Positions 22,911 through 53,600 of a stretch of 64,000 bases of DNA are shown piece by piece. The notes under the pieces were generated by a model. That model saw only the letters and a list, made by a program, of their open reading frames with translations. It had not been told where the DNA came from and ran no database searches. Position numbers and translations under genes: made by a program. Position 1 is the stretch's first letter. Each line of letters begins with the position of its first letter. Where the stretch lies: positions 36,332,001-36,396,000 of the forward strand of contig OZ287755.1 in assembly GCA_965649765.1 (NCBI GenBank), written 5' to 3'. The DNA is from Bispira polyomma. Lineage: Eukaryota.

Positions 22911-23981
22911 TCATAAATTACCCATACATACTATGAGATGAACAAAGAAAAGACCTCTGACTAGTGCAAAGAAACACTCAATGAGATCTGATGTTCTGGG
23001 AACCAAATTTCCCTTGAAAAGTACGAAAGAATAAAGAAGATAGAGGTCAGATAAGACATTTTGTGTCAAGAATTTACAATTTGCATTTTGCTTGGCAAAG
23101 CCACTACCTTTACTAGTACCACGGCCACTACTGGTATGAACCACACTATTATTTGACACGTGCCTCTGTGCATGGGCCCTTCTCAAACGGTCTAATTTTT
23201 CCACGTCGGACCACGAAAGCTTGTCCATTTCCATGTGCGTCATGATAACTGCATGACAAGCCTTCGCCGCCTCCCACGAGAAGTCTTCCGCATCTTCCAT
23301 GAGGTTGGACATATAATCCAGCATTGTTTCTCTAACCGAGTTACACTTCTCCTCCTGAATTATTCTAGTAAAACCGCATACCCACTGGGTCATGGACAGA
23401 TCATTGTACGTGGGTCTAGCACGAAAACTACCAGTGAGCACATGGTTTTGGGGCCATTCAACAACACGTTTAATTACTACGTCCACCCCACCCCCCCTTT
23501 GAGATTTGAGCTTACCCTGACTGGGAGCTTCATTCAGACGTTTTAGTTCTGCTAGCCGTAATTCGACCTGACTCTGAATTTGTGTGTTGTTTCGCAGGAA
23601 ATCAACACTAGGTACCACATTCTGAACATTTTCTTCTCTGATGGGAGGGTCAACTACTGCGGTTGTATTAATTACAGAATTATCACTAAAATTCAAATTA
23701 CTGGCCTGTTTTTTGTTTCCATCCACTGCCAATGTTGCCTCGGCGAGTTGCACACGCTGGTCCATTTTTTCCATCATCTGGCTCATGGACTGGAGCTGAA
23801 GCAGAATTTGATTCGATACCGTGTTCAGCCCCACGTCCTGAGCCATACCAGTATCTGTGTGCTCCTCGCCTTGGTCATCATTAGCATCAGAAGTGGAAGA
23901 ACCCTGAGATAGCAAACACCCAGCCCCAACCGGCCTAGCACGTTTCCCCAGACATTTAGAACAGTTTACAACCGCAGGCAT
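22911..23981 (-). CDS. Gag-like ORF1 of YR retrotransposon, truncated before the C-terminal zinc finger
   Basis: Clear paralog of 44401-45471 (QGKLKSQR, WPQNHVLTGS, QWVCGF, SWEAAKACHAV, RRAHAQRHVSN); the last ~50 aa are read-through into unrelated DNA. Confidence 0.75.
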   Translation of the reverse strand: MPAVVNCSKCLGKRARPVGAGCLLSQGSSTSDANDDQGEEHTDTGMAQDVGLNTVSNQILLQLQSMSQMMEKMDQRVQLAEATLAVDGNKKQASNLNFSDNSVINTTAVVDPPIREENVQNVVPSVDFLRNNTQIQSQVELRLAELKRLNEAPSQGKLKSQRGGGVDVVIKRVVEWPQNHVLTGSFRARPTYNDLSMTQWVCGFTRIIQEEKCNSVRETMLDYMSNLMEDAEDFSWEAAKACHAVIMTHMEMDKLSWSDVEKLDRLRRAHAQRHVSNNSVVHTSSGRGTSKGSGFAKQNANCKFLTQNVLSDLYLLYSFVLFKGNLVPRTSDLIECFFALVRGLFFVHLIVCMGNL

Positions 23982-24920
23982 GTCAGTATTTATGTAACAA
24001 TTTGTAAGACAGAAAGGACACGATACACTAGCAGACGAGCTAGTTTAGTTTTTAAACTGGTTTAGAATTAATGTAAAACTGAACTTCGAATGTAACAACA
24101 TGTCACAAATACTAGAACTTCGTTTTGACCAGCATGTTTTACAATACTGAACTTCGAATCTAACAACATGTGTTACAAATACTGTGCTATGATAGAATAA
24201 TTCACAGCAGTTTAAACACTAAGGCAAAACTTCAAAACTATCAAAACTATAAACACGTGTAGAACTTCGTTTCTGCCAGCATATTTTACAATGTTGAACT
24301 TCGTATCTAACAACATATGTTGCAAATAATGTTTTACAATACTGACTATCGAAACTATCAACACATGTAGCACTTAGTTTTTGATGTTATAAAATAGAGT
24401 CTTGCGAGTACTGCTCCTGTTTGTGAGCTAAACTAGAGGCATGTATTCAAATTTATAACATAGTTACTGATTTAGACACTCGACTACACCTTATATATTG
24501 CAGGCTGGTTTTCTAGCATATAAAACGGCTCATAGTCACCCTTATAGGGACGAGTACACAGTATATTAAACACATATTGCTGGCTGGTTTGTTAGCACAT
24601 AAAACGGCTCTCGAGTATCCCTTATAGGGACGAGTATACTGTATATTAATGAAATATTACACAACATATGTTACAAATGCTGTGATAGAATAAAAACAAC
24701 GTGAAACTTCGAAACTATCAACACGTGTAGAACTTTGTTTCTACCGACATATTGTTACAAAATAATGTTCCGTGGTCGGCTGTAGTTTTCAAAAGGAAGT
24801 TATATTCAGACTGCACAGCTTTATATAGGGAGAGCAGCAGTCAGTGACGCGTTTACAAAAACAAATAGACTGTTACCCCAGCACTGAAAGCACCAACGCT
24901 GGGGGCGCTGCCTTATAATT
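23070..24920 (-). mobile_element. 3'-truncated YR retrotransposon (5' leader + gag only)
   Basis: gag homology to 44401-45471 ends at ~23070 (NCKF). 24874-24920 aligns with 45655-45701. TATATAAA at 24827-24820. Repeat-rich leader. Confidence 0.8.
24075..24770. repeat. Degenerate tandem repeats in the gag leader (GAACTTCG-cored ~35-bp units plus a ~78-bp duplication)
   Basis: gaacttcg-type cores at ~24081, 24116, 24149, 24262, 24296, 24703, 24730; duplicated block ~24495-24570 / ~24575-24650. Confidence 0.7.
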
Positions 24921-26420: not shown

Positions 26421-29400
26421 ATATGTTTGCAGTGTAGTGTCTGTAAACAGAAGTCAATTTAATTTGGCCAGGTTTAATAACGCTGGCTCTAGACTGAGTC
26501 ACTTCAGGAGCCCTCGAGGTTTCTCAGCCACACCCATTAGAAGTTGTATGGCATCATCACTCACGACCTAATATTATATGCTCTTTTCATTTAACAGTGT
26601 CCGTTTTAAATCTCTAATATTTTTATTTTTCCTGAAGGGCATTTGGTTAATATATGTTTTCTAAACAATATTTGAATTTAATCCTGGTACATTTAAGGAC
26701 AACAATCTAGATGCACATTCTTTTATCTTAATTCATAATTTATTTCATTGTTTGCAACTTCATTGGTACACAACTTTATTCTGTAATATTAATAAGTGGA
26801 ATTAATTAAACATTTTCAAAATAAAACTTACTGGATATCAAGCATTTCTCTAATTCTTTTAGCATATGTAGACATTTTAAACTGATAGTTATCAGCTATT
26901 CCTGCAATTTGAAGCTAATTTATGTGATAATACACTTTTCAAAATTGACCTAACAATCAATTTAGTCATGCTCTTACGATTTGTAACAATAATTTGTTTA
27001 CATCAAGCAAGAAGTGTGTTTTAATTTTAAAGAGAAAATATTTTTACTTGGTATTTAGTGCTTTAATTAGTATCTCACCAATATGGGAAGAACAAAGAAG
27101 ACATCTGTCAGTGTTCCATCAAGGGGAAAGAAGACACAGACTACTAGAAAACCAAGTAGCATGAATAATCAAGGTACTGTAGTCAGTAGTATTGACCCAC
27201 TGGCTGTAAATCTCCAAAGTATGCTAGCGGACGTAGCTACAGTCCCAGAAACAAGTACCGTTCAATCGGGTATGGGAGAAGTACTTTCTGTGTTAAAGTA
27301 ATTAGAATCTGCGAATAGACATACACAAATGTCTGGATCGGATGGCCAAATTAAATTGGAGGCATGCGGCTTGTGCAATTCAACTCCCTTAGGTTCACCT
27401 ACAGGGGCTTCACTCAATGGTACCATCAAAGATCACAGGCAGACGGAATTCGCATTACCCCCCACCCCCCTCTCAGGGATCACAGCTGGGGTCGTGTTAC
27501 TCACACTCATCTGCAATCCGGACAAGAGGACTATCAGTGGGACAGAATTATCCCTAAGGTTGACGTGTTGCGCTCAGTTCCTGAGGCCACGGCTGCTGTA
27601 AACCAAAGACTGCCCAGTTATGATACCTTACAAGGCAAAAATCAGGCTGTTATTACACTACTGACATAGCGGGGGCTGATCCACAACTCAGGTGGCCAAA
27701 CGAGGGTTGTGTAGGGGTGACCACATGAAAGCGGCCTAACTTTGATGACCTTTCATTGCCAAAGTGGGCAGCAGTTCAGCTATTTAATGTCTCACAAGTG
27801 CAAGACCCAGTGTTACTCAAACAGATGTTAAACCAGGTAATATTCTCATTACACAATGCTTCCTTCCTGCCAAGGCCCGGGTTAGGGCCGCATGGGCAGC
27901 GAACATCCAGGGGCGTCTCACGTGGGGAGATGCTACACAATGGGCATTGTCGCGCATGAATATCTCACAACCTACACTCGTGAATAGCCAAAACTCTCAG
28001 CAGTCACACAGACCAGGAAACAGTAAGGGTAAACTGATCTGCAAATATTTCAGTCTAGGCAAATGTCACCATGAGGGAGACCACGGTCAATATAAACATG
28101 TATGTTCTCATTGTAGTAGGATGTTCAACAAAGAATTACCTCACTCGTCAGTTAAGTGTGATAAAAATAATGCAACTAGCAACGGTCAAGGGACTAATAG
28201 TAAGGAGTAGGACATATGTCAACAACTAACCGAAAGAACAATCAGAGAGTGCGGGTATGATAGCAGTAATGTGTATAAAGATGACAATGAAGTAGACTTA
28301 GTAGATTGAAATGATAATTGTAAAGCCTTAATTGATAATGTCATGTAAGAGGACATAATAGACAATGGTAAATTGGACGTGGCAGGCAGTAAATCAGATA
28401 TTGCTAATTCAAAGAAACTAGTGTTTAGTAATTGTAATGTTACTGACAATACAGACCAGTCAATATATAATGTACATGTCTATAATTGCAATCATATGAG
28501 TATTTTAGAGTATCATTGGGCAAATGGTGTTAATTCCAAAAAATAATTGAAATCCAACTGAAATTATACATGTTACAGAAATGGTTGTTATCATTAATCC
28601 AGTTCAGTGGGCTTATCACCAATATACTGAAAGGCAACAAGAACAGGCTGAATTAGCACACTATCAGTAAAACAGAGACCTCGACTGCATGAACCATTAT
28701 GGTTGTGTTTATACACAACACATTGAGAGCATTATAGACAAGTTAATTGAACATGATGACATTGATAGTGCTAGTCATAATGCACACTTGTATGATAAAA
28801 ATGTTCTAATAAATATTGCTAACAATACTAACTTGACGTACGCTCGGGTGTCACAACGAAGCGTCAGGGGCTGGTCAGGTGACCAGACCCATAATCCAAT
28901 CAATAATTATTATCAGGGCATGGATGACACCACACTTAAGGTTAAGGTAAGTCACTTTTCTTCGAAAACTGGAACAACAGATTCATTGTGAATCCAAAAC
29001 AGTAGGTTTTATTAGGCTTTCCAACACGGATTATGAATTTGTAGGCCCTGATAGGGAACCTCTAGCCACTACTAGTGTTGAAAGTATGCTTCGCACTGCT
29101 GAAATAATTAGAGACACTGGATTACCCAATTATAGGTCTTCTAGGATCCCTCTTAAGTATGGCCTCAATGTGGCAGCTTGGGAAGAAATCATGTTTGACC
29201 ACCCAGATAGGTTGTTGTTGCAATATATTAAATTTGGGTTCCCCCTTTCATTAGATGACCCTAAGTTACTCCATAATACCAACACTGATAACCACCATTC
29301 TGCTATTCAATACTCTTCAGAAGTGCTTCAATATTTTCAATAGGAACAGTCTCAGGGAGCCATGTTGGGCCCAGTTAAGATAATTAATGATATACATTTC

Positions 29401-30298
29401 CATTCTTCACCCTTTTAACCAGGCCAAAGCACCTTGACAAACGTAGGCTTATACTTAATCTTTCCTACCCACATAACTTGTCTGTCAACAGCTAAGTAGT
29501 TAGAGATACTTTTGATCACACAAAATTCATCTTAAGATTTCCCACCATAGATCATATTACTAGGGAGATTAGAAACACTGATAACCGTGTAGTATTTAAG
29601 ACAGATGTGGCACAAGCTTTCTGTTACCTCAGGGTCGACCCTGTTGATGCAATAAAACTGGGTATAAATTGGAATGGTAACCACTATGTTGGCGCTGCCG
29701 TGGCATTTGGCTGGGCCCATGGCAGCGCAGCATTTCAGCGATGCTTAGATATTATTGCTGACTACATGAGGTCCAGTGCTAGTAGAGCAAATGAGGGATA
29801 CACCCTCTTACATGACATACTTGACAAATTAGGGCTCCGTATAAATGAAGACAAATCAGTTACTCCTGACATTTCCATGATGTTTCTAGCAATCGACATT
29901 GATATTATTAAGGGTACCATAAGTATCAGCCAAGACAAGATAGATCAGATTTACCAAGACTTACAGAACATTATTATTAAGTCATGGCTATCACGTACTA
30001 AATATCAAAGCATGTTATTAAAATTACTCTATATACAGAGGGCCGTGTAGCCTGCAAGAATATTTATAAACAGATTATTGGCTGTCTTTAGAAACAATCC
30101 AGGTGCCAAAAGATTTAAGATCACAAACAACATTAGGCAAGACATTACTTGGTTTTTTTCATTCCTACCACAGTGCAATGGCATAACATACATATCACCT
30201 ACAAACATACCAAATATGCACGAATTTTACTTGGATGATCAACACTCTCAAACAGATTTCCAAAACCTTTCTTAGTTGCTTTTTTCGGGTTCCTGAGA

Positions 30299-30823
30299 AT
30301 GTTGAATATCGCTCCTCATTTAAAAGCCAAATTTGATCATTCTAGGCATATCTTTCGTCAAGATGTTATATTTGGCCCTCCAGAGGCTCATCTAATACTT
30401 AAATGGGCAAAGAACATGCAAAATAGGTCAGACACTCATATCATTCAGCTTCCTTCATTGCAGGACAAATTGCTTTGCCCAGTAACTGCATTAGTGAAAT
30501 TATTGCAGTCTAGACTGCTCAAACCAACTCAACCGCTTTTTGCTTCATTAGCCCCTCCTCATTACCCTGTTGTAGACTCCCACATCAGATCTGCACTAAA
30601 ATCAGTTCTACAACACTTAGGGGTGGACCATAGTTATCATGGATTTCACGAATTCCGTAGATCTGGTGCTTCCCTAGCCTTTAATAATAATGTTTCTCTA
30701 CAACAGATTATGTCACACAGCTTGTGGCGCAGCTCAGCAGTATGGGCTTATCTTCAACAGTCCTCATCTCAAGCTTCCATAGTCCCACTCACATTTACTT
30801 CCATTATCCCCTCTTCCTCTTAG
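30299..30823 (+). pseudogene. Tyrosine recombinase C-terminal fragment
   Basis: LKWAKN, GFHEFRRSGASLAF and HSLWRSSAVWAY align with 40972-41946; N-terminal half deleted. Confidence 0.85.
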
Positions 30824-30831
30824 CTTGGGTT

Positions 30832-32062
30832 TGGGCATATTTAAAATCTCTACTGAGGTTGAAATTTTAAACCTTTTATGATTTATGTACATATGAAAAT
30901 ACTATTGTGTACAGAATAAATTCTGCAAACCTATCTATTATTGACTTATCAAGGTCTACCACAGCTTTACTCACCTAAGTGGACTTTATTTTCTATTAAT
31001 GTGGAACTGTGCCTGGCACGACCATAGAGGTTTCTGCTTGTTCAGTTCTAACCTTTAATTCTATCCTACCTTAATTAATTAGGTCCACTCCTTCATCTCT
31101 CCTTCTGTCCATCATCCTGAGCCAATTAGTTTCCTCCCCTGATTTTGCTTATAGCTTTCCCTAAGCATTCCACCATATTACATTCGTATTTACATCAAGC
31201 AAGAAGTGTGTTTTAATTCCCACCTTCCTTCCCCTTATCATCCAACCTGATATTAGGCTTTACTTTTGATATTTTACCTATTTTCCATCTTGTGATGGCT
31301 TTACCCCCTTGTCCTCCTATATTATTGAGGAAATTGTTTACACACTTAAGTGCCACTGTCAGTGGTTTGAACCCGGATCCGTGTGGTGCTGGTTCTCAGC
31401 TGTAACTACCCCCTGGTGTGGGCTACCAGGGAATTCAGCTCTGCAGTTGGGAACCTTCACTGCAAGGCGATTAGGTGCCGGTTGGAGTGGTCGCGTGAGA
31501 GATGATAATACTACGTATTAAGGAATATTACTTTTCATTCTATATCACTTAACAATTGGTAAAGCACAGTAAAGCGTAAACACTACACTCTACCTATGAG
31601 GTCCACTGGTATAATCTTACATGTGATTTCAGGAATCATAATGAGAAACAAAGTCACTAGCAGCATAATGTACTATTACATGCTGCTACAACACACTGAC
31701 ATGTGTACTTATCATTTAAACTTATTTACAGTTTAATCTTTATTTTACTCTGTTGTTTTACCTCTTCATTTTATTCGGGCGTGGTGAAAGCCACTCAATC
31801 ATTCCTAGTTGTATTACAGGGATTTGTTTTGTTATGTTTAACCAGGGCTAGTCCCGTTCACATGATATTGCACATGCTAGTTATGGGCATATTTAAAATC
31901 TCTACTGAGGTTGAAATTTTAAACCTTTTATGATTTATGTATATATGAAAATACTAATGTGTACAGAATAAATTCTGCAAACCTATCTTTTATTGCCGTA
32001 TCAAGGTCTACCACAACTTAACTCCCTTAACTGGACTTTACTTTCTATTAATGTGGAACTGT
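30832..32062 (+). repeat. 179-bp direct repeat pair (B1 30832-31010, B2 31884-32062)
   Basis: Ungapped manual alignment with 11 mismatches (~94% identity). Confidence 0.95.
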
Positions 32063-40000: not shown

Positions 40001-40971
40001 AAAGCCATGCACATGACCATAGATGAAACTTCAAATTGTTCAGTAGGGGTGCAAAATCAAATGAGAAGTTGAATGGGTGTAGAATGTTTTATGTTATTAA
40101 ATTTTGTTTTACAGACAAAACATCATTTATTATAAAAATGATCCAAGTCATTATGTTGTTGAACACTAAAATCATTTAATAAAACAATTGTTGGTTTCCT
40201 TGGGTCAATAACACTCTTTATTTTCCACTCTGCTGTGAAATATGACACTTTGGAGTGCAATATAGATCAGGATATACATATATTCACGATGCTTGGCCTA
40301 CCGGGCTGGTATTGTACCCTTTATCTTCCTTTGTCATATAATGTTTTAATATACACCACGTAGATTTACAGTTCTATTGCATCTTTAAATATGTAATAAT
40401 TGTTAAATATTGTATGAGGTATACAATTATATGATATTGATATTGTATATCATTATGATCATACGTAGTTAGGGAGGTGACCTGGTGATGAAAACGGTTT
40501 CCAGTTCCTCGGGGTAGCCTGAGGCAACTGAATTAACCGAACAAGTCATGAAAAGACAATACTGCGGTTAAATATATTTTATTTTATATTTACAGCTACT
40601 ATTACTAAGATATTTATGTACAGTTCTTTGACATGATATACACCTTGTGTGAGCATACGGTCCCCTTAACTCAATTGAGTTTAGGACTTTAGGTTAAACC
40701 AGAATGGGTTTAAGTAACTCTAACTAATAAAGAAGTTGAATTCAGAAATTTTGATTTAAGTTGAAACTTACATATGACTTTGAAGATTAACAAATTAAAG
40801 TTTGACTTAGGGTTTAAGTGCAACTTTAATTAGATGAGTACAATATGTACTTTAATAATACAGGGGGACCTTATGCCCACAGTTAATTCATTTAGTTTAC
40901 AGGTAATTAATATGGTACTTGCAATGTTAAACTGACTAGATCTTACAGTCATGCCACCAAACCCCAAAATT

Positions 40972-41946
40972 CTAGTAGGTATCTTGTAGAATAGTTTTGA
41001 AGGAATCGGCAACCTGGGAACCAGCATTGGCAGAATCGGAAATGTAACGCCAGACGCAATCAGACGTCCAGGTGCCATGCCTTTGGATGTCCTGAATGGT
41101 GACATTATTGTTAAAGGCAAACGTGGCACCTGAACGCCTGAAAGCGTGAAAGGTCAAGCCAGAGTACTGCGGGCCCAGCATTAGTAAGACATTCTTAAGA
41201 TGCCTGCGAACCCTAGTATCAGTAAGGGGAATCCAACTGGCATTCTGCTTAAATTGAAACAAGGGCAGATCTTTCCCTTTGGGAGAAATAGCAAGTATGT
41301 TTTTTACAGCTTGAACCGGACATAGAATGGAATTGGTTAAAGCTGGTATGGTGAGCAAGCGAACAGCATTATTGTTTTGAAGGGTTTTAGACCATTTAAC
41401 AATGAGGACAGCATACCCTGGCTTGAAAAGGACATCCGCCCTCGCAAGCTGCTTAAGAGGAGAGTAAGCAGCAACCGAATGAGCACAGAGGTTAGACAGC
41501 CTCAGAAACGAAAAGAAACTGACAAGATAAACTGCTTTAAAAATTTGACCCATGTAAGTGCTGTTACACTTTATAATAAGAGACCTAAGCAACTGGAGGT
41601 CGAAAATTGACTTAAGTTTGACTTGCAATGGTCTATGCATTGCCAAAGCTTTATTATAATAGGTAATTCTTTTATCAGAAAAAGCGTCTACAGATATATG
41701 GAAGAGGACACACTTTGCCTTAATGGCAGAAAGATGATTAAGAACTAGACTCGCCGACACCCCATTAAACGTTAAGAACTCTAAATAAGCTAGGAGATAT
41801 AACACAGTCACCTTATGAGGAGGCCAAGACATAAAGGCTCCAAACGCCAAGAACAGCCTGAACATTCTGTTGTAGGCTCTGTTAGTGGCAGGGGTGAAGG
41901 CCAGTTCAAGTCTGTCACAAGCTTTCTGCATCAAGGAGAAGCCCAC
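40972..41946 (-). CDS. Tyrosine recombinase (phage-integrase family) of YR retrotransposon
   Basis: Complete catalytic set: R (FLRLSNL), K (KWSKT), HxxR (HAFRR), H/W (HGTW), Y (WRYI). The ORF-track start is GTG; the true start is probably supplied by splicing. Confidence 0.93.
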   Translation of the reverse strand: MGFSLMQKACDRLELAFTPATNRAYNRMFRLFLAFGAFMSWPPHKVTVLYLLAYLEFLTFNGVSASLVLNHLSAIKAKCVLFHISVDAFSDKRITYYNKALAMHRPLQVKLKSIFDLQLLRSLIIKCNSTYMGQIFKAVYLVSFFSFLRLSNLCAHSVAAYSPLKQLARADVLFKPGYAVLIVKWSKTLQNNNAVRLLTIPALTNSILCPVQAVKNILAISPKGKDLPLFQFKQNASWIPLTDTRVRRHLKNVLLMLGPQYSGLTFHAFRRSGATFAFNNNVTIQDIQRHGTWTSDCVWRYISDSANAGSQVADSFKTILQDTY

Positions 41947-41980
41947 AGGGTGTATATCTGGAAAACATGACTAACAGGTG

Positions 41981-44380
41981 CTATATAAGTGAGTTAACTT
42001 TTAATAAACTCTGGCAAGCAGGCAGCCACTGGACAGACCCAGCTAACCTAAATAACGACAAATGGTTGGCTTCAATTTCAGTCCATCTTGACAGCAGATC
42101 TGCAATTTTCTTTTCTTTACCCAACACATGTATGACAACAATATCAATATTAAACTTGCTAGCTAACATGTATATGTTCCTGGAATACGTGGCTAAGTCC
42201 GGATCTCTGGTGCGCCCTGTCTGTAAGACACTTACAACTGCCCGATTATCACATCTGACCAATATTCTACGACCTCTCCATTTATGAATCCACAATTTAA
42301 GAGCTACCAGGATGTTAAGCATCTCCAAAGAAGCAATATTGAGCTCACTCATTTCTGGAGGAATGTTAATTTGGTACACTTGTTTCTCAAAAATACCCCC
42401 CATTCCAGTAAGGCAGGCATCTAATTCAATCTCACCAGTTATGGGCTTAGGCATGAAGAAAGAAACTCCATTGAACTGTTCTGCAAAAGTAGTAAACCAG
42501 TTTAAGTCACGCCTGAATGCAGGGGTGATGGTAATGTACTTTCTGGCGTAATTATCTCTTAACAACTCGAGCATCCTATTCAAAAAGACACGAGCATACT
42601 TTACACATTTAGAAATATATAATAACAAGCCAAGTAAAGACTGGAGCTCTCTCTTAGTGCAAAATTTCTTGGATCTCCATTCCTGACACTTATCTTTAAT
42701 TTCACTTAATTTTTCAACCGGGATGGAGGTAGTACCTCGAATGGTATCCACTACTATTCCCAGGCAGACAACCTGTGTGCTGGGAGGAACCAATTTTTTC
42801 TGACTTACTGTCAACCCCAATTCTTGTAGCAGTTCTTGCAATCTAAGGAAAGTTTTTTGAATTTTGCTGGGAACCGAAAGAGCCAAAAAATCGTCGATGT
42901 AGTTGTGGACATTATGATTTTCAGAGTGCATTATGAATCGCACGGCATCCGAAATTCTCTGAAAAATCGTGCTACCATTACAATATCCGAACGGCAGAGA
43001 TTTGTCCACATAATAGGACTTCCACTTTAGACCTAGGAGGTCCACGTCGCCAGGGTCAATGGGTACGTGACGGAAAGCCCTACTTATGTCGACCTTAAAT
43101 ATCTGACATCCTCTACCCAATTTTACCACCTCACTAGTGAGATTATCAATAGATGGGTCAGACAATAAAAATTCAACACCCAAGTAAGATGACGGAGATG
43201 CTCCCGCATTAACCGACCCCCCTTTAGGCCAACTCAAGTCTACGATTACTCTCCGGTTAATTGAATTCGGTTTATGTCTCGTCATAAGGGGGGAACAATG
43301 CAAGCCCGGAATAGGAGGTTTGTCAAATGGCCCTAACATGGCTCCTAACTCACATTCTTCTCGCATATAAGCTTCTACATGCTGGGGATGTTCCTCAGCC
43401 GACTTATGATTAATCTCACTGGATTCCAGTTTTACTGAATGATCCACGTCTAGGGGGAATCCATATTTTATGAGGAGAGGCAATTGCCAATCCCAGTAAT
43501 TGTTAAGGTATTTTTTCCAACTCTCGGGTCTTAATTGAGAGGGAACAGGGATTTGCAACCCTTCATAATTGTGTCTCCCATCAGCCCGAATTAAGTCATG
43601 CATTTCCAATATGGAAAGTTCGGGCCCTCCCCCACCATGATCTGCAATCTCACAGCCCAGAGCAGAGAGAGGCGTGAATCCATAAGGATATTGACTTTGA
43701 GCTTGCCATTTTCTGTAAGTAGGATTTGAGGCAGCCTTAGCTAACATGCCTTTCTTATTTACTTTCTGCTTCAAAGCACAGGAGTATTTATCGGGACATT
43801 CGGAACTTTCCGGGCTATCTTCGGAAGCAGTTTTACTCCTCGCCTTGCCTCGGCTAATGGGCTTGTCACTAGTAACAGAAAGGAAGCGAACGGGCTCGTC
43901 AACCTTTCCACTATCATCGACCGGCAGCGACATTAAAGCTGCATACTTGTTAGCAAGAGGGAGGTCAGCCACATCCCCATTGACCCGCTGCGCTTCGCCC
44001 CCATTCAATCTCGAACAATTGACCTCCTTTGTTCTCACCTTGTCTTGTTTCGCACACATGTCAGGCTTCACAATGGGTGTCAATTGGCTCACAGAGGTAC
44101 CAAAGGGCCTCACCAAGGTGTCACTTTTGTTAGGTAATATATTCACCTTACTCTTGTCAAGCCTTTCCTGTTTTACCTGTACATAATTAATACTTCTATT
44201 TACACACCCACACTTTTGAACTGGGCCATTCTTTTGCAACGCCTGGCTATAGCTCAAGCCTGGTCTGGTGCCCTTCACATATTTACACATTTTCTGACAC
44301 ACAGACCTCTCAAATAACTGTACATCCTTAAACTTAGTGTTATAAACAAACCTACTTTTTCGCTCACCCCTTTTAGCCAC
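41981..44380 (-). CDS. Reverse transcriptase-RNase H (DIRS/Ngaro type)
   Basis: RVIVDLS, KVDISRAFRH, LPFG, YIDD; RNaseH residues ELDACL, LEMLN, CDNRAV, IADLLSR. Begins at GTG, and the frame is open back to the gag slippery site. Confidence 0.95.
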   Translation of the reverse strand: MAKRGERKSRFVYNTKFKDVQLFERSVCQKMCKYVKGTRPGLSYSQALQKNGPVQKCGCVNRSINYVQVKQERLDKSKVNILPNKSDTLVRPFGTSVSQLTPIVKPDMCAKQDKVRTKEVNCSRLNGGEAQRVNGDVADLPLANKYAALMSLPVDDSGKVDEPVRFLSVTSDKPISRGKARSKTASEDSPESSECPDKYSCALKQKVNKKGMLAKAASNPTYRKWQAQSQYPYGFTPLSALGCEIADHGGGGPELSILEMHDLIRADGRHNYEGLQIPVPSQLRPESWKKYLNNYWDWQLPLLIKYGFPLDVDHSVKLESSEINHKSAEEHPQHVEAYMREECELGAMLGPFDKPPIPGLHCSPLMTRHKPNSINRRVIVDLSWPKGGSVNAGASPSSYLGVEFLLSDPSIDNLTSEVVKLGRGCQIFKVDISRAFRHVPIDPGDVDLLGLKWKSYYVDKSLPFGYCNGSTIFQRISDAVRFIMHSENHNVHNYIDDFLALSVPSKIQKTFLRLQELLQELGLTVSQKKLVPPSTQVVCLGIVVDTIRGTTSIPVEKLSEIKDKCQEWRSKKFCTKRELQSLLGLLLYISKCVKYARVFLNRMLELLRDNYARKYITITPAFRRDLNWFTTFAEQFNGVSFFMPKPITGEIELDACLTGMGGIFEKQVYQINIPPEMSELNIASLEMLNILVALKLWIHKWRGRRILVRCDNRAVVSVLQTGRTRDPDLATYSRNIYMLASKFNIDIVVIHVLGKEKKIADLLSRWTEIEANHLSLFRLAGSVQWLPACQSLLKVNSLI

Positions 44381-44410
44381 TGCATCTACGCAGTGGCCCC
44401 TCAGTTTTTT
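44375..44410 (-). promoter_or_regulatory. Predicted -1 programmed ribosomal frameshift signal, gag to pol
   Basis: A_AAA_AAC 44410-44404 in gag frame right before TGA; 5-nt spacer; stem GGCCACUGC/GCAGUGGCU 44398-44375; -1 frame is continuous with pol. Confidence 0.8.
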
Positions 44411-45471
44411 GCCCCTTTCTTATGACATTCACTAGTCTTATGGCTGCCCTCGCATGTCTCGCAATGATGTCTATAGAACTGACCTCCAGTATTGTGAGAG
44501 CTGGGAAATCTACAATTTCCTTCCTGATAAAAGCGACAAGACATTGCACCTTTACAACCGCCAGATTTACTGCTACTAAAGTTACCTAGCCGTCCACTAA
44601 CCCCAGAGGAATTTCTACTGTTCGACACATGGCGCTGAGCATGGGCTCTTCGAATTCGATCCATCTTATCTACCTCTAGCCAACCTAGCTTATCCATCTC
44701 CATGCTGGTCAATACGACTGCATGGCAGGCCTTAACTGACTCCCAAGAACAATCCTGGGCATCCTCCATAAGACCCCCCATGTAATCCAGCATGGCATTC
44801 TTCACTTCGATCGACTTTTCTTCGTGAGCGATCCGAGCGAAACCACACACCCATTGCAACACGGTTAACTCATCGTAGCTAGGCCGAGACTTAGAACTAC
44901 CCGTCAGCACATAATTTTGAGGCCAGGCGGTGACCTTCTTTACCAATACCTCATTCGCCCCACTACGCTGGGACTTCAGTTTACCTTGCGAGGTGGTTTC
45001 ATTCAACGTTTTCAGATCTTTCAATCTCTGCTCCACTTGGAGCTGTATTAGGGCATTCTGGTTTAAAAATTCCATGCCAGGAATTATACTGTCGGACGTA
45101 GCGATAGATGGGCTCTTACCTACGTCAGCAGAGCAACTAGCAGGCCTGACAACACTAGAATTCAACAAACTACTACTTGCCTGAACGGGGACCTGATGAC
45201 TTGCCTGACTACTGGTAAGGTTCGCCGCCAATGCTGCCTCATTCCTCTGAACCCGCTGGTCCATTTTTACCATTAATTCATTCATCGAGTGCAGTTGAAG
45301 TAATATAGCGTTGGTAACTGTATCGCCTGACTCACCGTTCGCGGGTTCAGTGGCTGAAGCAGCATCGATCTCCTCCCCAGAGACAGAGTCAGAAACTTCT
45401 GCAATAACGCAATTTCGCCCGACAGGACGCTCATGTTTGGTTAAGCATTGACTACAATCAAAGACAGGCAT
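44401..45471 (-). CDS. Gag-like ORF1 of YR retrotransposon
   Basis: ATG start; N-terminal CxxCxxxH...C motif; coiled-coil segments; C-terminal Cys/His finger CRFYQEGNC...HCETCEGSHKTSEC; position directly upstream of RT. Confidence 0.9.
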   Translation of the reverse strand: MPVFDCSQCLTKHERPVGRNCVIAEVSDSVSGEEIDAASATEPANGESGDTVTNAILLQLHSMNELMVKMDQRVQRNEAALAANLTSSQASHQVPVQASSSLLNSSVVRPASCSADVGKSPSIATSDSIIPGMEFLNQNALIQLQVEQRLKDLKTLNETTSQGKLKSQRSGANEVLVKKVTAWPQNYVLTGSSKSRPSYDELTVLQWVCGFARIAHEEKSIEVKNAMLDYMGGLMEDAQDCSWESVKACHAVVLTSMEMDKLGWLEVDKMDRIRRAHAQRHVSNSRNSSGVSGRLGNFSSSKSGGCKGAMSCRFYQEGNCRFPSSHNTGGQFYRHHCETCEGSHKTSECHKKGAKN

Positions 45472-47159
45472 GACTAGATGGTGTTTGACTAAAATATTGT
45501 AAATTATAAAATCATATACACCATAAACAAAATGTCACCCAAACAAAATTTTAAACTAGTTGTTGCTCTGCTGACGAAACGATAAAGGCGAGAGAATTTG
45601 AAAAGGAGAGCCTTATATAGTCGTACACCATCCCATAATAGTAGAACAGGCTGGTACCCCAGAACTGAGGCCACGAACGCTGAGGGCGTTCGCTTACAAT
45701 TCCACCCCTTTATTGGGGGAGTTGGTCTGGTGATCATAAGGTTCCTATTTCGACTGCTGTTGATGCCTCTACGTTGTTTTGTTGTGAGATAAGATCCTTT
45801 GGTAAGATGTGAACACAGAATTGCTGAATGCTGACGATCCAGGTTTGGTTGTAGTGGAACAAGCTCACCAAATTATGATGTAAAGATTACTATATAAATG
45901 CTTTATAATATAACCTATTATTTCTATTTCAGTGATGTTGGAAAATGGAAAACGCAAGTAAGTTTTCCACTTTTGTTATTTGTAAACCCACCCACCAATA
46001 TGCCTTTCTGTTGGCATGATGTGGTGGTTCTGATTATTATATAAGTACTACATGCTTCTTTTTCACTGGGCCACCCAAAAAACATTTTATGTAATTAAAA
46101 TGCATCATATATGAAATTTGGGCATGTATTAATATTGCATTTCCATAGATCTTTTTCTACTTAACACAAATACATTGTAAGCTTTACAATATTCTACCGT
46201 CGATTTACTTATCAAATGGCTCCCATATAAACTTAGCCATATCTAAAATATTTACAAGTATGTGAGTGCAGCTAAGTGACAGTGTGTAATTAATTTGGAT
46301 TAAATAAACTTCAGTTACTTTAGAAAGGCTTCTTATATCCAATATATTTTGAATGATAGGAATCACTACAGTGTAAACCTCCGGCATTAGGTGCAACATC
46401 GAAACGGTCTTTCTTTATACCCCAGGTTCCAGTTTCCACATAGCCCTCGACCATCAGACTTATCTGTGCTATTCAGAAAACTGACTCCTTCAGCAAAGTT
46501 TTCAAACATATTCTATCCACATAGCTTATATGGCTTATCTTCCCATCAGTAACGATAGGCCAGGATCATTCCGTTGTCACGTATCCCAAGTTATTGAGAC
46601 ACGTGCCAATGATAGGTAGTTAGAAAAGGCCCATGTTTAAAGATAACTCAGGCTTTCTAAAAGATAAGTCAATGGGATGGCTCCTATTTAAAAGATAACT
46701 CCGGCAGACAAAAGATAACTCGGCGGTGACAGCAATAACTTTGGAGAAAAATCTTATTGGCCAACGAGTTTTGGAGTGGTTGCCAGTATACATAAAAGAC
46801 CATGACAGACGTCTTCATCATAATCAATTCCAGCATAAAGAGAATACTCATATATTGGAACAAAAGACATACTGTACTGAGACAGGGTCTTTATTTGAGT
46901 GATAAAATAAAATATTATAATGCCACCAAAACGGAAAGTAACAAAGAGGAGGACAGAGACAGTGGAGGAGGAGGAGTAAAGGGAGTTCCATCTGGGGGGA
47001 TATACTTTGTAAGAAAGCGTGCCAGAAACACAGCTGTCGCAGATGGTATTGAGGTTGAAGGTGAATGAGACCCAGGATAAGACAGAAGACACAGGAAACA
47101 CATGACACCGCTGGGGAGAGTGAAGTGACTGGTATCATCAGGAGGCAAAAGAAAAGGGA

Positions 47160-50613: not shown

Positions 50614-53600
50614 ATGATTAGCAATTTATGTATTTTGACATTATTTGTAGCTGTAGTGACTGGCACTTCTTCAGGTAATTTGAACATAAATATTACCTAA
50701 ATTTACTTAAATTTAGCCAATATATAAAAGTTTGTGTTTGCTCTTACACTTTTGTTTTTAAATGTGTCTTATATGTGGAGGTTTTTTGGTGGTTGTTTCT
50801 AATTTTTTATTGGTCATAATAGTAAAACATATACACTAATAAGTGCTATTGCTAGTGCTATTGCTAAGTGCTATTGTATAGCGCCACAAAGAATAAAAAT
50901 AAGGACATAACTTGGGACAATGAAATTATATGTAACATGTTATTTCTCCAGTAACTTTACCTGAAAGTCTTCAGTAACTGTGCCTCAAAGTCTTCAGTAA
51001 CTGTGCCTCAAAGTCTTCAGTAACTGTGCCTCAAAGTCTTCAGTAACTGTGCCTCAAAGTCGTTCAGTAACTGTGCTTGAAAGTCTTCAGTAACTGTGCC
51101 TGAAAGTTTTCTGTAACTGTGCCTGAAAGTCTTCAGTAACTGTGCCTGAAAGTCTTCAGTAACTGTGCCTCAAAACTCTGATTTGAAGTGAAACAAATAA
51201 TGTTAACGAATGGATGTTGGTGTTTCTTCAACCGAGTGGCATCACCTAGTCCCTCAAAGACAAAACACCATGCATACTTATCATGTAGTATGTATATTTG
51301 TGATTTAAGGAATCACACAGGAAGAACTGTATCACTTGATCAGTGATATGTCTGTAGTGCTACAGCAGCAGGCTAAATTAATTGCCGGACAGAGCAAGGA
51401 TATCTCTCTTCTACAGCATCAGTATGCAGCCATAGGTATGAATATAGTATATTGTATTATACTATGTATATTTTTTAACACGATTTATTGATGTGTGGGG
51501 CATCTTCTAAATCAAAACAACTGAATTAATCAACCAATCATGTGTCCTACAACATAGATTGGGTCGTCATCAGTAGTTGCAATGGTGCGTCAACACCTTG
51601 ATATAGACTGTTGTTTCATCAATCAACCCATCAGAAGGAGTCAAACTGTAGACCTTCTGATCACGAGACCAACTTTCTTCTATGAGTTGAACTAAGGACC
51701 TTCTCATCACCGGACCAACTCCTTAACCACTAGGCTATGGAGACCAAAATAACAGATTGGATACCACAGCTTCAACTTATCCTTAATTTAAAGTCACCTT
51801 AACGGCCTTCCAACTATAATAGTAACATTTATATGTAAAAATTCTGTACTTTATGATTTGAATGTTGTACACATAATATATATTCCTTAATATGTTTCAA
51901 TTGATTATTCCACAGATGAAGTTGGTTGTCCCAATAAAGTTTTGAAAGTGATGCAAAGACCAAAATTAACTGAACTAAGTACACAATATTGCGGTAATGC
52001 TAACTGTACAAACAATGTACCTTCAATATCTTGGAATCATTTCTAGAATACGAGGTGTTTTTTTTTTTTTGTTTTTTTTTCAGTATTCTTATAACACTGT
52101 TATTTCAGCTCAGAATAAAGACAATGGCCAAATTGCATTCACAGCAACAGCTTCAGAAGACAGAACTTACAATGCTGGAGAAACGATACAGTTCTTTAAT
52201 GTATTAACAAACATGGGAGGGGCATACAATGCAAACACAGGTACTGAATTTCAGTATTTTCTGCAATACAAAGCTGCTTATTGAAACAAATGTAATAGTT
52301 GTTTGTCACTAAACTGAGGCCATTAATACTGACGATGAAATATTTTGTAACTAATATTTCGGCAGAAACATAACCTCTTACAGCACAGACATACTTGCAT
52401 GATACACATAAGCTGATCAGAATGAATATTTAGTTTCATTTTTCTTGTTAATATATTTGTCCTAAATTCATATTAAGTTCATATTTCAGAAATTCAATTT
52501 TTGTTCCAATTTATTTTTACCTTTGTATGTGTAATTGTTTTATTCATAGTTATATATTTCCTACTTTTTGTTATATTTGTTATCTATACTATAATATAAA
52601 ACGCCTTAATTGAACAAACATACTACTGTGTGCTCACAGGTATCTTTAAATGCCCTGTCCACGGTGTGTACTTGTTTAGTAGTACGATCTTCACTCACAA
52701 TGATAATGCAATGCTTTTTAAGATAACATCATCAAGCCGGGGAGAATTTCTGTATGGTGAGAATATTTTTTTAATATTTTATTTTGTATAATAAGACATA
52801 AAAATGTTTTTTTACAATACATACATGACATGTATTACAATTATCAAAAATTAACAAAACTGCGTTACCTTTTACACCAATGTGGAAAAATTAACCATTT
52901 TTGTAACGAAATTATAAAAATAAAAAAACAGATATGCATGTAGATAAAATAAAAAATAAATTGTATGAACACTATACATTTGTTTGGCTTGTCTACATGT
53001 CTAAACTTTTTCACTACAATCTTTAGTTACCAGCTTTTAAATATTCTGCATTTTCTACCAATCCAAACAAAAATTGCCATTTACTTTGATGCGTGTTTAA
53101 ACTTTTATTTGCATTCTGTATTATAGTGTTCTCTAACTTGTAAGTATAGCATATAATATATTTAAAATGATCTATACTTAGACTACTTTCCTTGCATTTG
53201 GTTACAAATATATAATACTTTCCAAGATAAAATATATGATTATTCAATTTATTATTCTATCATTTTCCCCTTTGTATCCAAGCAGAACTGATTTGGCTGT
53301 TATGATCAATGATCAATTGATAGATATTGATTTATTAAACATTTTACTTCATCCCAAAAAAGTTTTACAGTTGGGCAGAACCAGAATAAATGTTTCATAC
53401 TTTCAGGTGTTTTGTTACAGTAATATTTGTCCGAATCCTCCATTTTACAAATAAATAAGTATTTATTTGTAGGTAAGACTCTCAGCAGTAATTTTTATTG
53501 GAAGCTGCTTAATTTACTTTCGATAGAACACTTAAAGTTTAATAAATAAAAATGTATCCAATTATCTTTGTCAATTTCTTCATCTAAAAGCTACCGACCA

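Follow-up and report, generated by a model that had tools for sequence, protein, structure and literature searches.

A probable programmed −1 frameshift signal at the gag-pol junction of Ngaro-like retrotransposons of Bispira polyomma, and a likely UAG readthrough counterpart in a sister clade

Described recoding signals and the element in the window

Programmed −1 ribosomal frameshifting and stop-codon readthrough are both textbook recoding mechanisms. The heptamer AAAAAAC is used by MMTV, HTLV and astroviruses, with spacers of 6–9 nt (PMC3835772, part covered), and few heptamers make mammalian ribosomes shift as readily as A_AAA_AAC does (PMC5009743, covered portion). The MMTV stimulator is a pseudoknot, not a plain hairpin (PMC5009743, covered portion). 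HTLV-2 uses a simple 10-bp hairpin, for which 9% was reported in lysate; reporters with plain hairpins of 6 and 10 bp gave 3.5% and 13%, respectively (PMC3203594, part covered). UAG-G is the type III readthrough context (PMC3159437, part covered). For retrotransposons of the order DIRS, the Ngaro layout is A1-[ORFs]-B1 A2 B2 with split direct repeats and the ORF order gag, RT/RH, YR (PMC8547959, part covered), and Ngaro elements are without methyltransferase (PMC3266345, part covered). Overlapping or frameshifted ORFs are noted, with no recoding mechanism in the parts covered, in PMC3266345, PMC3783388, PMC6681497, PMC7192593, PMC5633606, PMC8547959, PMC6238403 and bioRxiv 10.1101/2021.08.05.455354. 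The covered parts of PMC8547959 and PMC3266345 state no mechanism for expression of the Ngaro RT or recombinase, and the covered portion of PMC5009743 makes no mention of DIRS. A search for DIRS, Ngaro or YR retrotransposons together with gag-pol frameshifting found nothing in literature whose coverage stopped short of the founding Ngaro paper, the main review, the 2003 recoding survey, Repbase and supplements.

The window, the whole 64,000-nucleotide stretch of B. polyomma DNA analyzed here, carries on its minus strand an element (45698–40502) composed of a gag-like ORF1, pol and a tyrosine recombinase ORF (Table 1). One 601-base probe of the same genome returned at least 40 matches of 94–100% identity, and heptamer and stem were identical in 29 of the 30 copies fetched with it. 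Among 20 longer family copies, seven repeat the first 152 bases past the 3′ end (A2), and all seven continue through ∼730 shared bases to a point where the last 465 bases recur (B2). The fuller copies are thus A1-ORFs-B1-A2-B2 split direct repeats, whereas the copy in the window carries just A1 and a single B. Owing to these repeats, the ORF order and the absence of methyltransferase (no match in pol at E up to 10), all shared with Ngaro, we file the element, on structure alone, as a young Ngaro-like retrotransposon. Different from Ngaro, the window family has ∼730 bp between A2 and B2, and no hydrolase ORF was seen in it. DIRS1-like identity was rejected, since there is no methyltransferase domain and self-comparison of the element revealed no inverted terminal repeats with an internal complementary region.

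Several further features of the repeats were observed. The ∼730 bases between A2 and B2 (L281–L287) hold no shared ORF of 100 aa or more. A2 and this part are missing from 13 of the 20 copies, including that of the window, perhaps through B1–B2 recombination. Repeat B contains short palindromes at 40664–40685 and 40793–40831, with possible roles in replication or integration. Elsewhere in the window, a probable exon of the host lies at 51979–52284 (+), where a C1q domain begins (below cut-off at Pfam E 0.00085), and 50903–51220 is a tandem repeat with a 23-nt period.

The pol product contains an RT (Pfam RVT_1, E 8.5e-11) and an RNase H-like region that is below the Pfam cut-off, and it ends just past the latter. 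The initial annotation of this locus had proposed a Gag-Pol fusion with no visible protease. In agreement, the strict protease motif occurs in none of 33 linkers, and the linker of the window has no Pfam match. The structure model of ORF1 has a pLDDT of 76.5 and a pTM of 0.46, its helical domain being modelled only within the larger chain. Foldseek gave no match at E 0.001; a wider fold search with ORF1 was filled by the coiled coil (best Z 5.1), and the Atlas matches were nameless. As none of this matched a capsid fold, ORF1 is called Gag by position.

Table 1. Positions in the window of the junction, element and splice-site features; a slash marks a splice boundary
Feature	Position	Strand	Content or evidence
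Slippery heptamer A_AAA_AAC, gag phase	44404..44410	−	sequence, family copies
Gag stop TGA, immediately 3′ of the heptamer; first 3 nt of the spacer	44401..44403	−	
Spacer UGAGG, 5 nt	44399..44403	−	
Predicted stimulatory hairpin, 9 bp and 6-nt loop, tenth G-U pair possible	44375..44398	−	folding
ORF1, gag-like by position, 356 aa from ATG 45471	44401..45471	−	coiled coil, helical core, C-terminal Cys/His fingers
Pol ORF, −1 relative to gag	41981..44419	−	∼260-aa linker, RT, RNase H-like
First in-frame AUG of pol (rival start)	44288..44290	−	
Tyrosine recombinase ORF	40972..41970	−	motifs FLRLSN, HAFRR, HGTW, RY
Repeat A1, 152 bp, element 5′ end	45547..45698	−	
Repeat B, 465 bp, 3′ end of window copy	40502..40966	−	
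Predicted phase-1 splice donor AAG/GTAAAC in gag, last exon base 44985	44979..44987	−	
Predicted phase-1 splice acceptor TTTTCCAG/ at recombinase start, last intron base 41958	41956..41970	−	
Decayed sister-clade element: gag stop TAG-G at 28208, CAACTA (+13..+18) at 28223–28228	28208..28228	+	

The heptamer and the frame of pol in clade 1

The initial annotation had read the end of gag as GCA AAA AAC TGA with A_AAA_AAC in phase, followed by a 5-nt spacer and a 9-bp stem. The sequence at 44410–44401 agrees, and both spacer and stem were located on the minus strand. The stem arms are 44398–44390 and 44383–44375; the predicted hairpin folds at −17.4 kcal/mol (z −5.5), and none of 200 shuffles was equally stable. 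The spacer is 5 nt when counted to the outer pair and 7 nt when counted to the conserved stem core. Both strands of the window contain 819 X_XXY_YYZ heptamers, including 37 AAAAAAC, and the gag-end site is the only one of the 819 with a stem of −12 kcal/mol or lower starting 5–9 nt downstream, these thresholds having been picked after the site had been seen. One second hairpin (44367–44342) is not evident in other families and was left out of the signal. The −1 frame reads KKLRGHCVDAVAKRGER into RT; as claimed, it runs into the RT-RNase H frame, within a stop-to-stop ORF of 812 codons.

Compared to the gag-pro signals of the deltaretrovirus HTLV-2 and of MMTV and to that of astroviruses, the heptamer is the same AAAAAAC; its earlier equation with the MMTV gag-pro heptamer agrees with a table in PMC3835772 (part covered). 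The predicted simple hairpin resembles the simple hairpin of HTLV-2 and differs from the pseudoknot of MMTV. Unlike all three, the shift predicted in the window would open RT-RNase H, with neither protease nor integrase; the stop codon abuts the heptamer on its 3′ side, a spacer of 5 nt precedes the stem, and the signal sits in a tyrosine-recombinase retrotransposon.

Using Gag, recombinase and junction probes, we gathered 420 loci from the same genome. The Gag zinc-finger end is present in 361 of them, 348 of which have an RT match; they correspond to 308 distinct places. With Gag identity set at 80%, these fall into 50 clusters, and a few clusters consist of damaged members of other clusters. 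The loci are best-scoring matches plus hand picks, not a random sample; the clusters are related, many copies are decayed, and every DNA junction comes from one genome. One quick tree, built from 44 representatives of the clusters plus 27 outside homologues and with a midpoint as its only root, shows two groups. The two junction types separate on one branch with SH-aLRT 100, in a tree with no named reference elements and no methyltransferase-bearing DIRS outgroup. The group of the window element, clade 1, comprises 215 places in 35 clusters, of which nine places with a Gag tail longer than 25 codons were dropped, leaving 206. The window also holds a Gag remnant of one clade-1 family (22911–24044, minus strand), broken before the zinc fingers and without a junction.

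The last Lys-Asn of Gag is written A_AAA_AAC in 190 of the 206 clade-1 copies, is spelled otherwise in six and is absent from ten. The heptamer is present in 32 of the 35 clusters, among Gag cores down to 40% identity, and its three synonymous positions are fixed in the clade; other Lys-Asn pairs in the same Gags are spelled A_AAA_AAC in only 2 of 35. The codon 5′ of the heptamer varies in amino acid and ends in A in 32 representatives, which were picked for having the heptamer. Their gag stops are TAA (14), TGA (10) and TAG (8), and across clade 1 the stop lies 0, 1 or 7 codons past the heptamer. Outside this genome, 77 Gag homologues were found at the protein level in other assemblies; 22 of them end in KN and 22 in KNE. 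The metagenome search gave one locus, L421, of 1.5 kb (RT match 154–1124), too short for a junction.

Pol lies in the −1 frame in 100 of the 106 clade-1 copies with an open linker, and each of the six exceptions has an indel just past the stop. That heptamer and frame are both kept across the clade supports the earlier reading of a Gag-Pol fusion made by −1 frameshifting. The same annotation had described the pol 5′ end as having no ATG. There is indeed none at the very start; however, one in-frame AUG at 44290, upstream of RT, weakens this argument for the window copy. It is codon 44 of the ORF, 37 codons past the gag stop, and its context AAAATGT places A at −3; Met occupies this column in 10 of 12 aligned near families. 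Pol might therefore be translated alone from this AUG, by reinitiation or from a shorter RNA, with heptamer and hairpin serving otherwise. We consider this very unlikely. Nine open-linker copies from five clusters have no Met at all across the 258–328 codons before the conserved RT start, and the first Met of the other clusters falls anywhere from codon 6 to codon 160. Moreover, conservation in the −1 frame extends to residues ahead of the first Met, and both the fixed −1 relation and the fixed synonymous sites would be needless if pol had its own start.

The sister clade and the predicted recombinase splice sites

The second group (clade 2) was found through one decayed element in the window (27000–31000, plus strand), in which a zinc-finger remnant (28097), an RT remnant (29496–30050) and a recombinase remnant (30239–30823) were observed. 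It comprises 93 places in 15 clusters; four places with a Gag tail of more than 25 codons were dropped, leaving 89. Five of its loci (L169–L172 and L339) mark four copies in tandem with 5583-bp spacing.

The initial annotation had asked whether relatives lack the signal or carry pol in another frame. Clade 1 keeps both, as described above, but the sister clade does not: the heptamer is in none of its 15 clusters, and pol shares the gag frame in 40 of 41 copies with an open linker; one such copy, L412, has lost its TAG. Gag ends in TAG followed by G in 82 of the 89 copies, and none of 25 outside homologues of this clade ends in KN or in KN plus one residue. Because UAG-G is near-invariant and pol is in frame, the sister clade would also make Gag-Pol fusion by recoding, and it likely reaches pol by UAG readthrough. 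The arrangement gag-UAG-G-pol in one frame is that of type III readthrough in gammaretroviruses, luteoviruses and tombusviruses. A possible difference from these is that alignment folding, local folding and a duplex search within 1.4 kb predicted no downstream structure, neither pseudoknot nor hairpin. In 13 of the 15 clusters, C-R-R-C-Y-A occupies +13..+18 past the gag TAG, with a fixed third-position A (for example L334 and L378). This CRRCYA is similar to the tobamovirus CAR-YYA motif but lies 12 nt further away; it may act in readthrough or encode a short protein motif.

Both clades also share predicted splice sites for the recombinase. The mid-gag Gly codon is GGT, a phase-1 donor, in 45 of 48 clusters, and the three remaining clusters have an in-phase GGT at or near the same spot; for other Gly codons in the Gags, GGT makes up 153 of 446. 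The acceptor could be scored in 36 of the 50 clusters (14 were left out): in 35 of these 36 a phase-1 YAG stands ahead of the recombinase, at one shared position in 33 of them, compared to 9 and 9 in the other two phases. In the window, the predicted intron is 44984–41958 (3027 nt, minus strand), and the predicted join gives an open frame of 490 aa, 162 residues of which come from Gag. Contigs from two sequencing runs, which have no bearing on expression, contain the DNA and show no joints. Another donor just 3′ of the hairpin (GG/GTGAGC, 44374 region) has no fixed place across families, and the gag donor was preferred.

Given the strong, conserved phase-1 donor in gag, a splice joining this donor to some linker acceptor might give access to pol as well; for the sister clade, TAG/G, which matches YAG/G, could itself be the acceptor. 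This is highly improbable. By ad hoc weights, the best phase-1 acceptors of 33 linkers lie at scattered positions, in contrast to the recombinase acceptor with its one position in 33 of 36 clusters, and in 14 of 15 clusters the sister TAG has a negative acceptor score. In addition, joining the phase-1 donor at the sister TAG would throw pol out of frame.

The stem behind the heptamer and the proposed expression scheme

Across clade 1, the stem stays ∼5–9 nt behind the heptamer while stop, loop and stem sequence change. Among the 32 representatives, 24 fold at z < −2 and 24 are in the lowest 5% of flanking windows; several of the eight that miss z < −2 look mutated or deleted. Alignment of the junctions across families, which the initial annotation had proposed for heptamer conservation and stem covariation, confirmed the former but not the latter. 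In 23 homologous stems, 87.4% of cells pair, compared to 80.0 ± 1.5 in shuffles, with C-G/G-C swaps, and the numbers of paired cells and of two-sided cells exceed all 500 shuffles. However, only three pairs show two-sided change, which is no better than shuffles (275 of 500), and the main swap is probably one event between subclades. The six core pairs are almost invariant and therefore yield no covariation; read in the −1 frame, this core also specifies His-Cys..Ala-Val. At the same position, L227/L292/L312 and L232/L305 carry stems unrelated in sequence, which is stronger evidence than the covariation statistics.

One further arrangement was observed in the L221 cluster (eight places), where interleaved stems 8 nt past the heptamer, GGGGU.UGG with CCA.ACCCC and CUAGUCAUG with UAUGACUAG, would give an H-type pseudoknot instead of the hairpin. 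Each stem was predicted separately, and loop 3 would be only 3 nt.

The palindrome CCACTGC-N6-GCAGTGG, whose core is nearly invariant, looks like a tyrosine-recombinase site in having two arms about a fixed 6-bp spacer, and could accordingly be a DNA-level site (for recombinase binding or a cDNA hairpin) or a protein motif, with KN as a C-terminal motif of Gag. This reading is extremely improbable, as G-U pairs are in use and several clusters swap in unrelated stems with longer loops at the same spacing. Furthermore, the sister clade, whose recombinase is related, has no such palindrome, the known element ends are elsewhere, and what is fixed at the heptamer is codon choice, beyond mere Lys-Asn. 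It is barely conceivable that in-frame Gag-Pol arises by polymerase slippage on the A6 run, or is supplied in trans by rare pre-fused copies such as L092, L108 and L149, which are fused by nearby indels: these copies are isolated and their indels differ, six A make a short run, and the hairpin spacing suits a ribosome. In-frame fusion of gag and pol was observed in the single copies L092, L108, L149, L369, L110 and L127, through indels, deletions or stop loss.

Since slippery heptamer and hairpin are kept in dozens of diverged families, ribosomes likely slip back at this site, and we regard it as very probable that heptamer and predicted hairpin together are a functional programmed −1 frameshift signal. 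From the sequence, the reading frames, their conservation and the tree, we infer that one RNA with one start codon may give three products: Gag, Gag-Pol by −1 frameshifting, and GagN-recombinase by splicing. Most ribosomes would terminate at the gag stop and release Gag of 356 aa. A minority would shift by −1, bypass this stop and produce one Gag-RT-RNase H fusion of 1163 aa. From hairpin reporters of similar length (PMC3203594, part covered), the rate of shifting would be a few to ∼10 percent. As no protease is visible, the fusion likely either remains uncleaved or is processed by an enzyme of the host. The recombinase would come from a spliced RNA in which gag codon 162 is joined to the recombinase ORF and both the frameshift site and pol are removed.

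On a wider claim we stand evenly divided, namely that animal Ngaro-like elements in general use one RNA and one start codon for Gag by termination, protease-less Gag-Pol by recoding and GagN-recombinase by splicing, that sister clades have swapped −1 frameshifting (A_AAA_AAC with exchangeable stems) and UAG-G readthrough (with a new CRRCYA element at +13), and that none of this is in print. For each of the three steps the locus supplies short cassettes that can be put to the test, and dozens of diverged families back them. If true, the start-less RT and recombinase of DIRS-order elements would gain an expression route, and annotation would change, with RT and recombinase proteins beginning in Gag. 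Low-ratio Gag-Pol fusion would then be used by retroelements without protease and integrase, and frameshifting and readthrough would be interchangeable in sister lineages.
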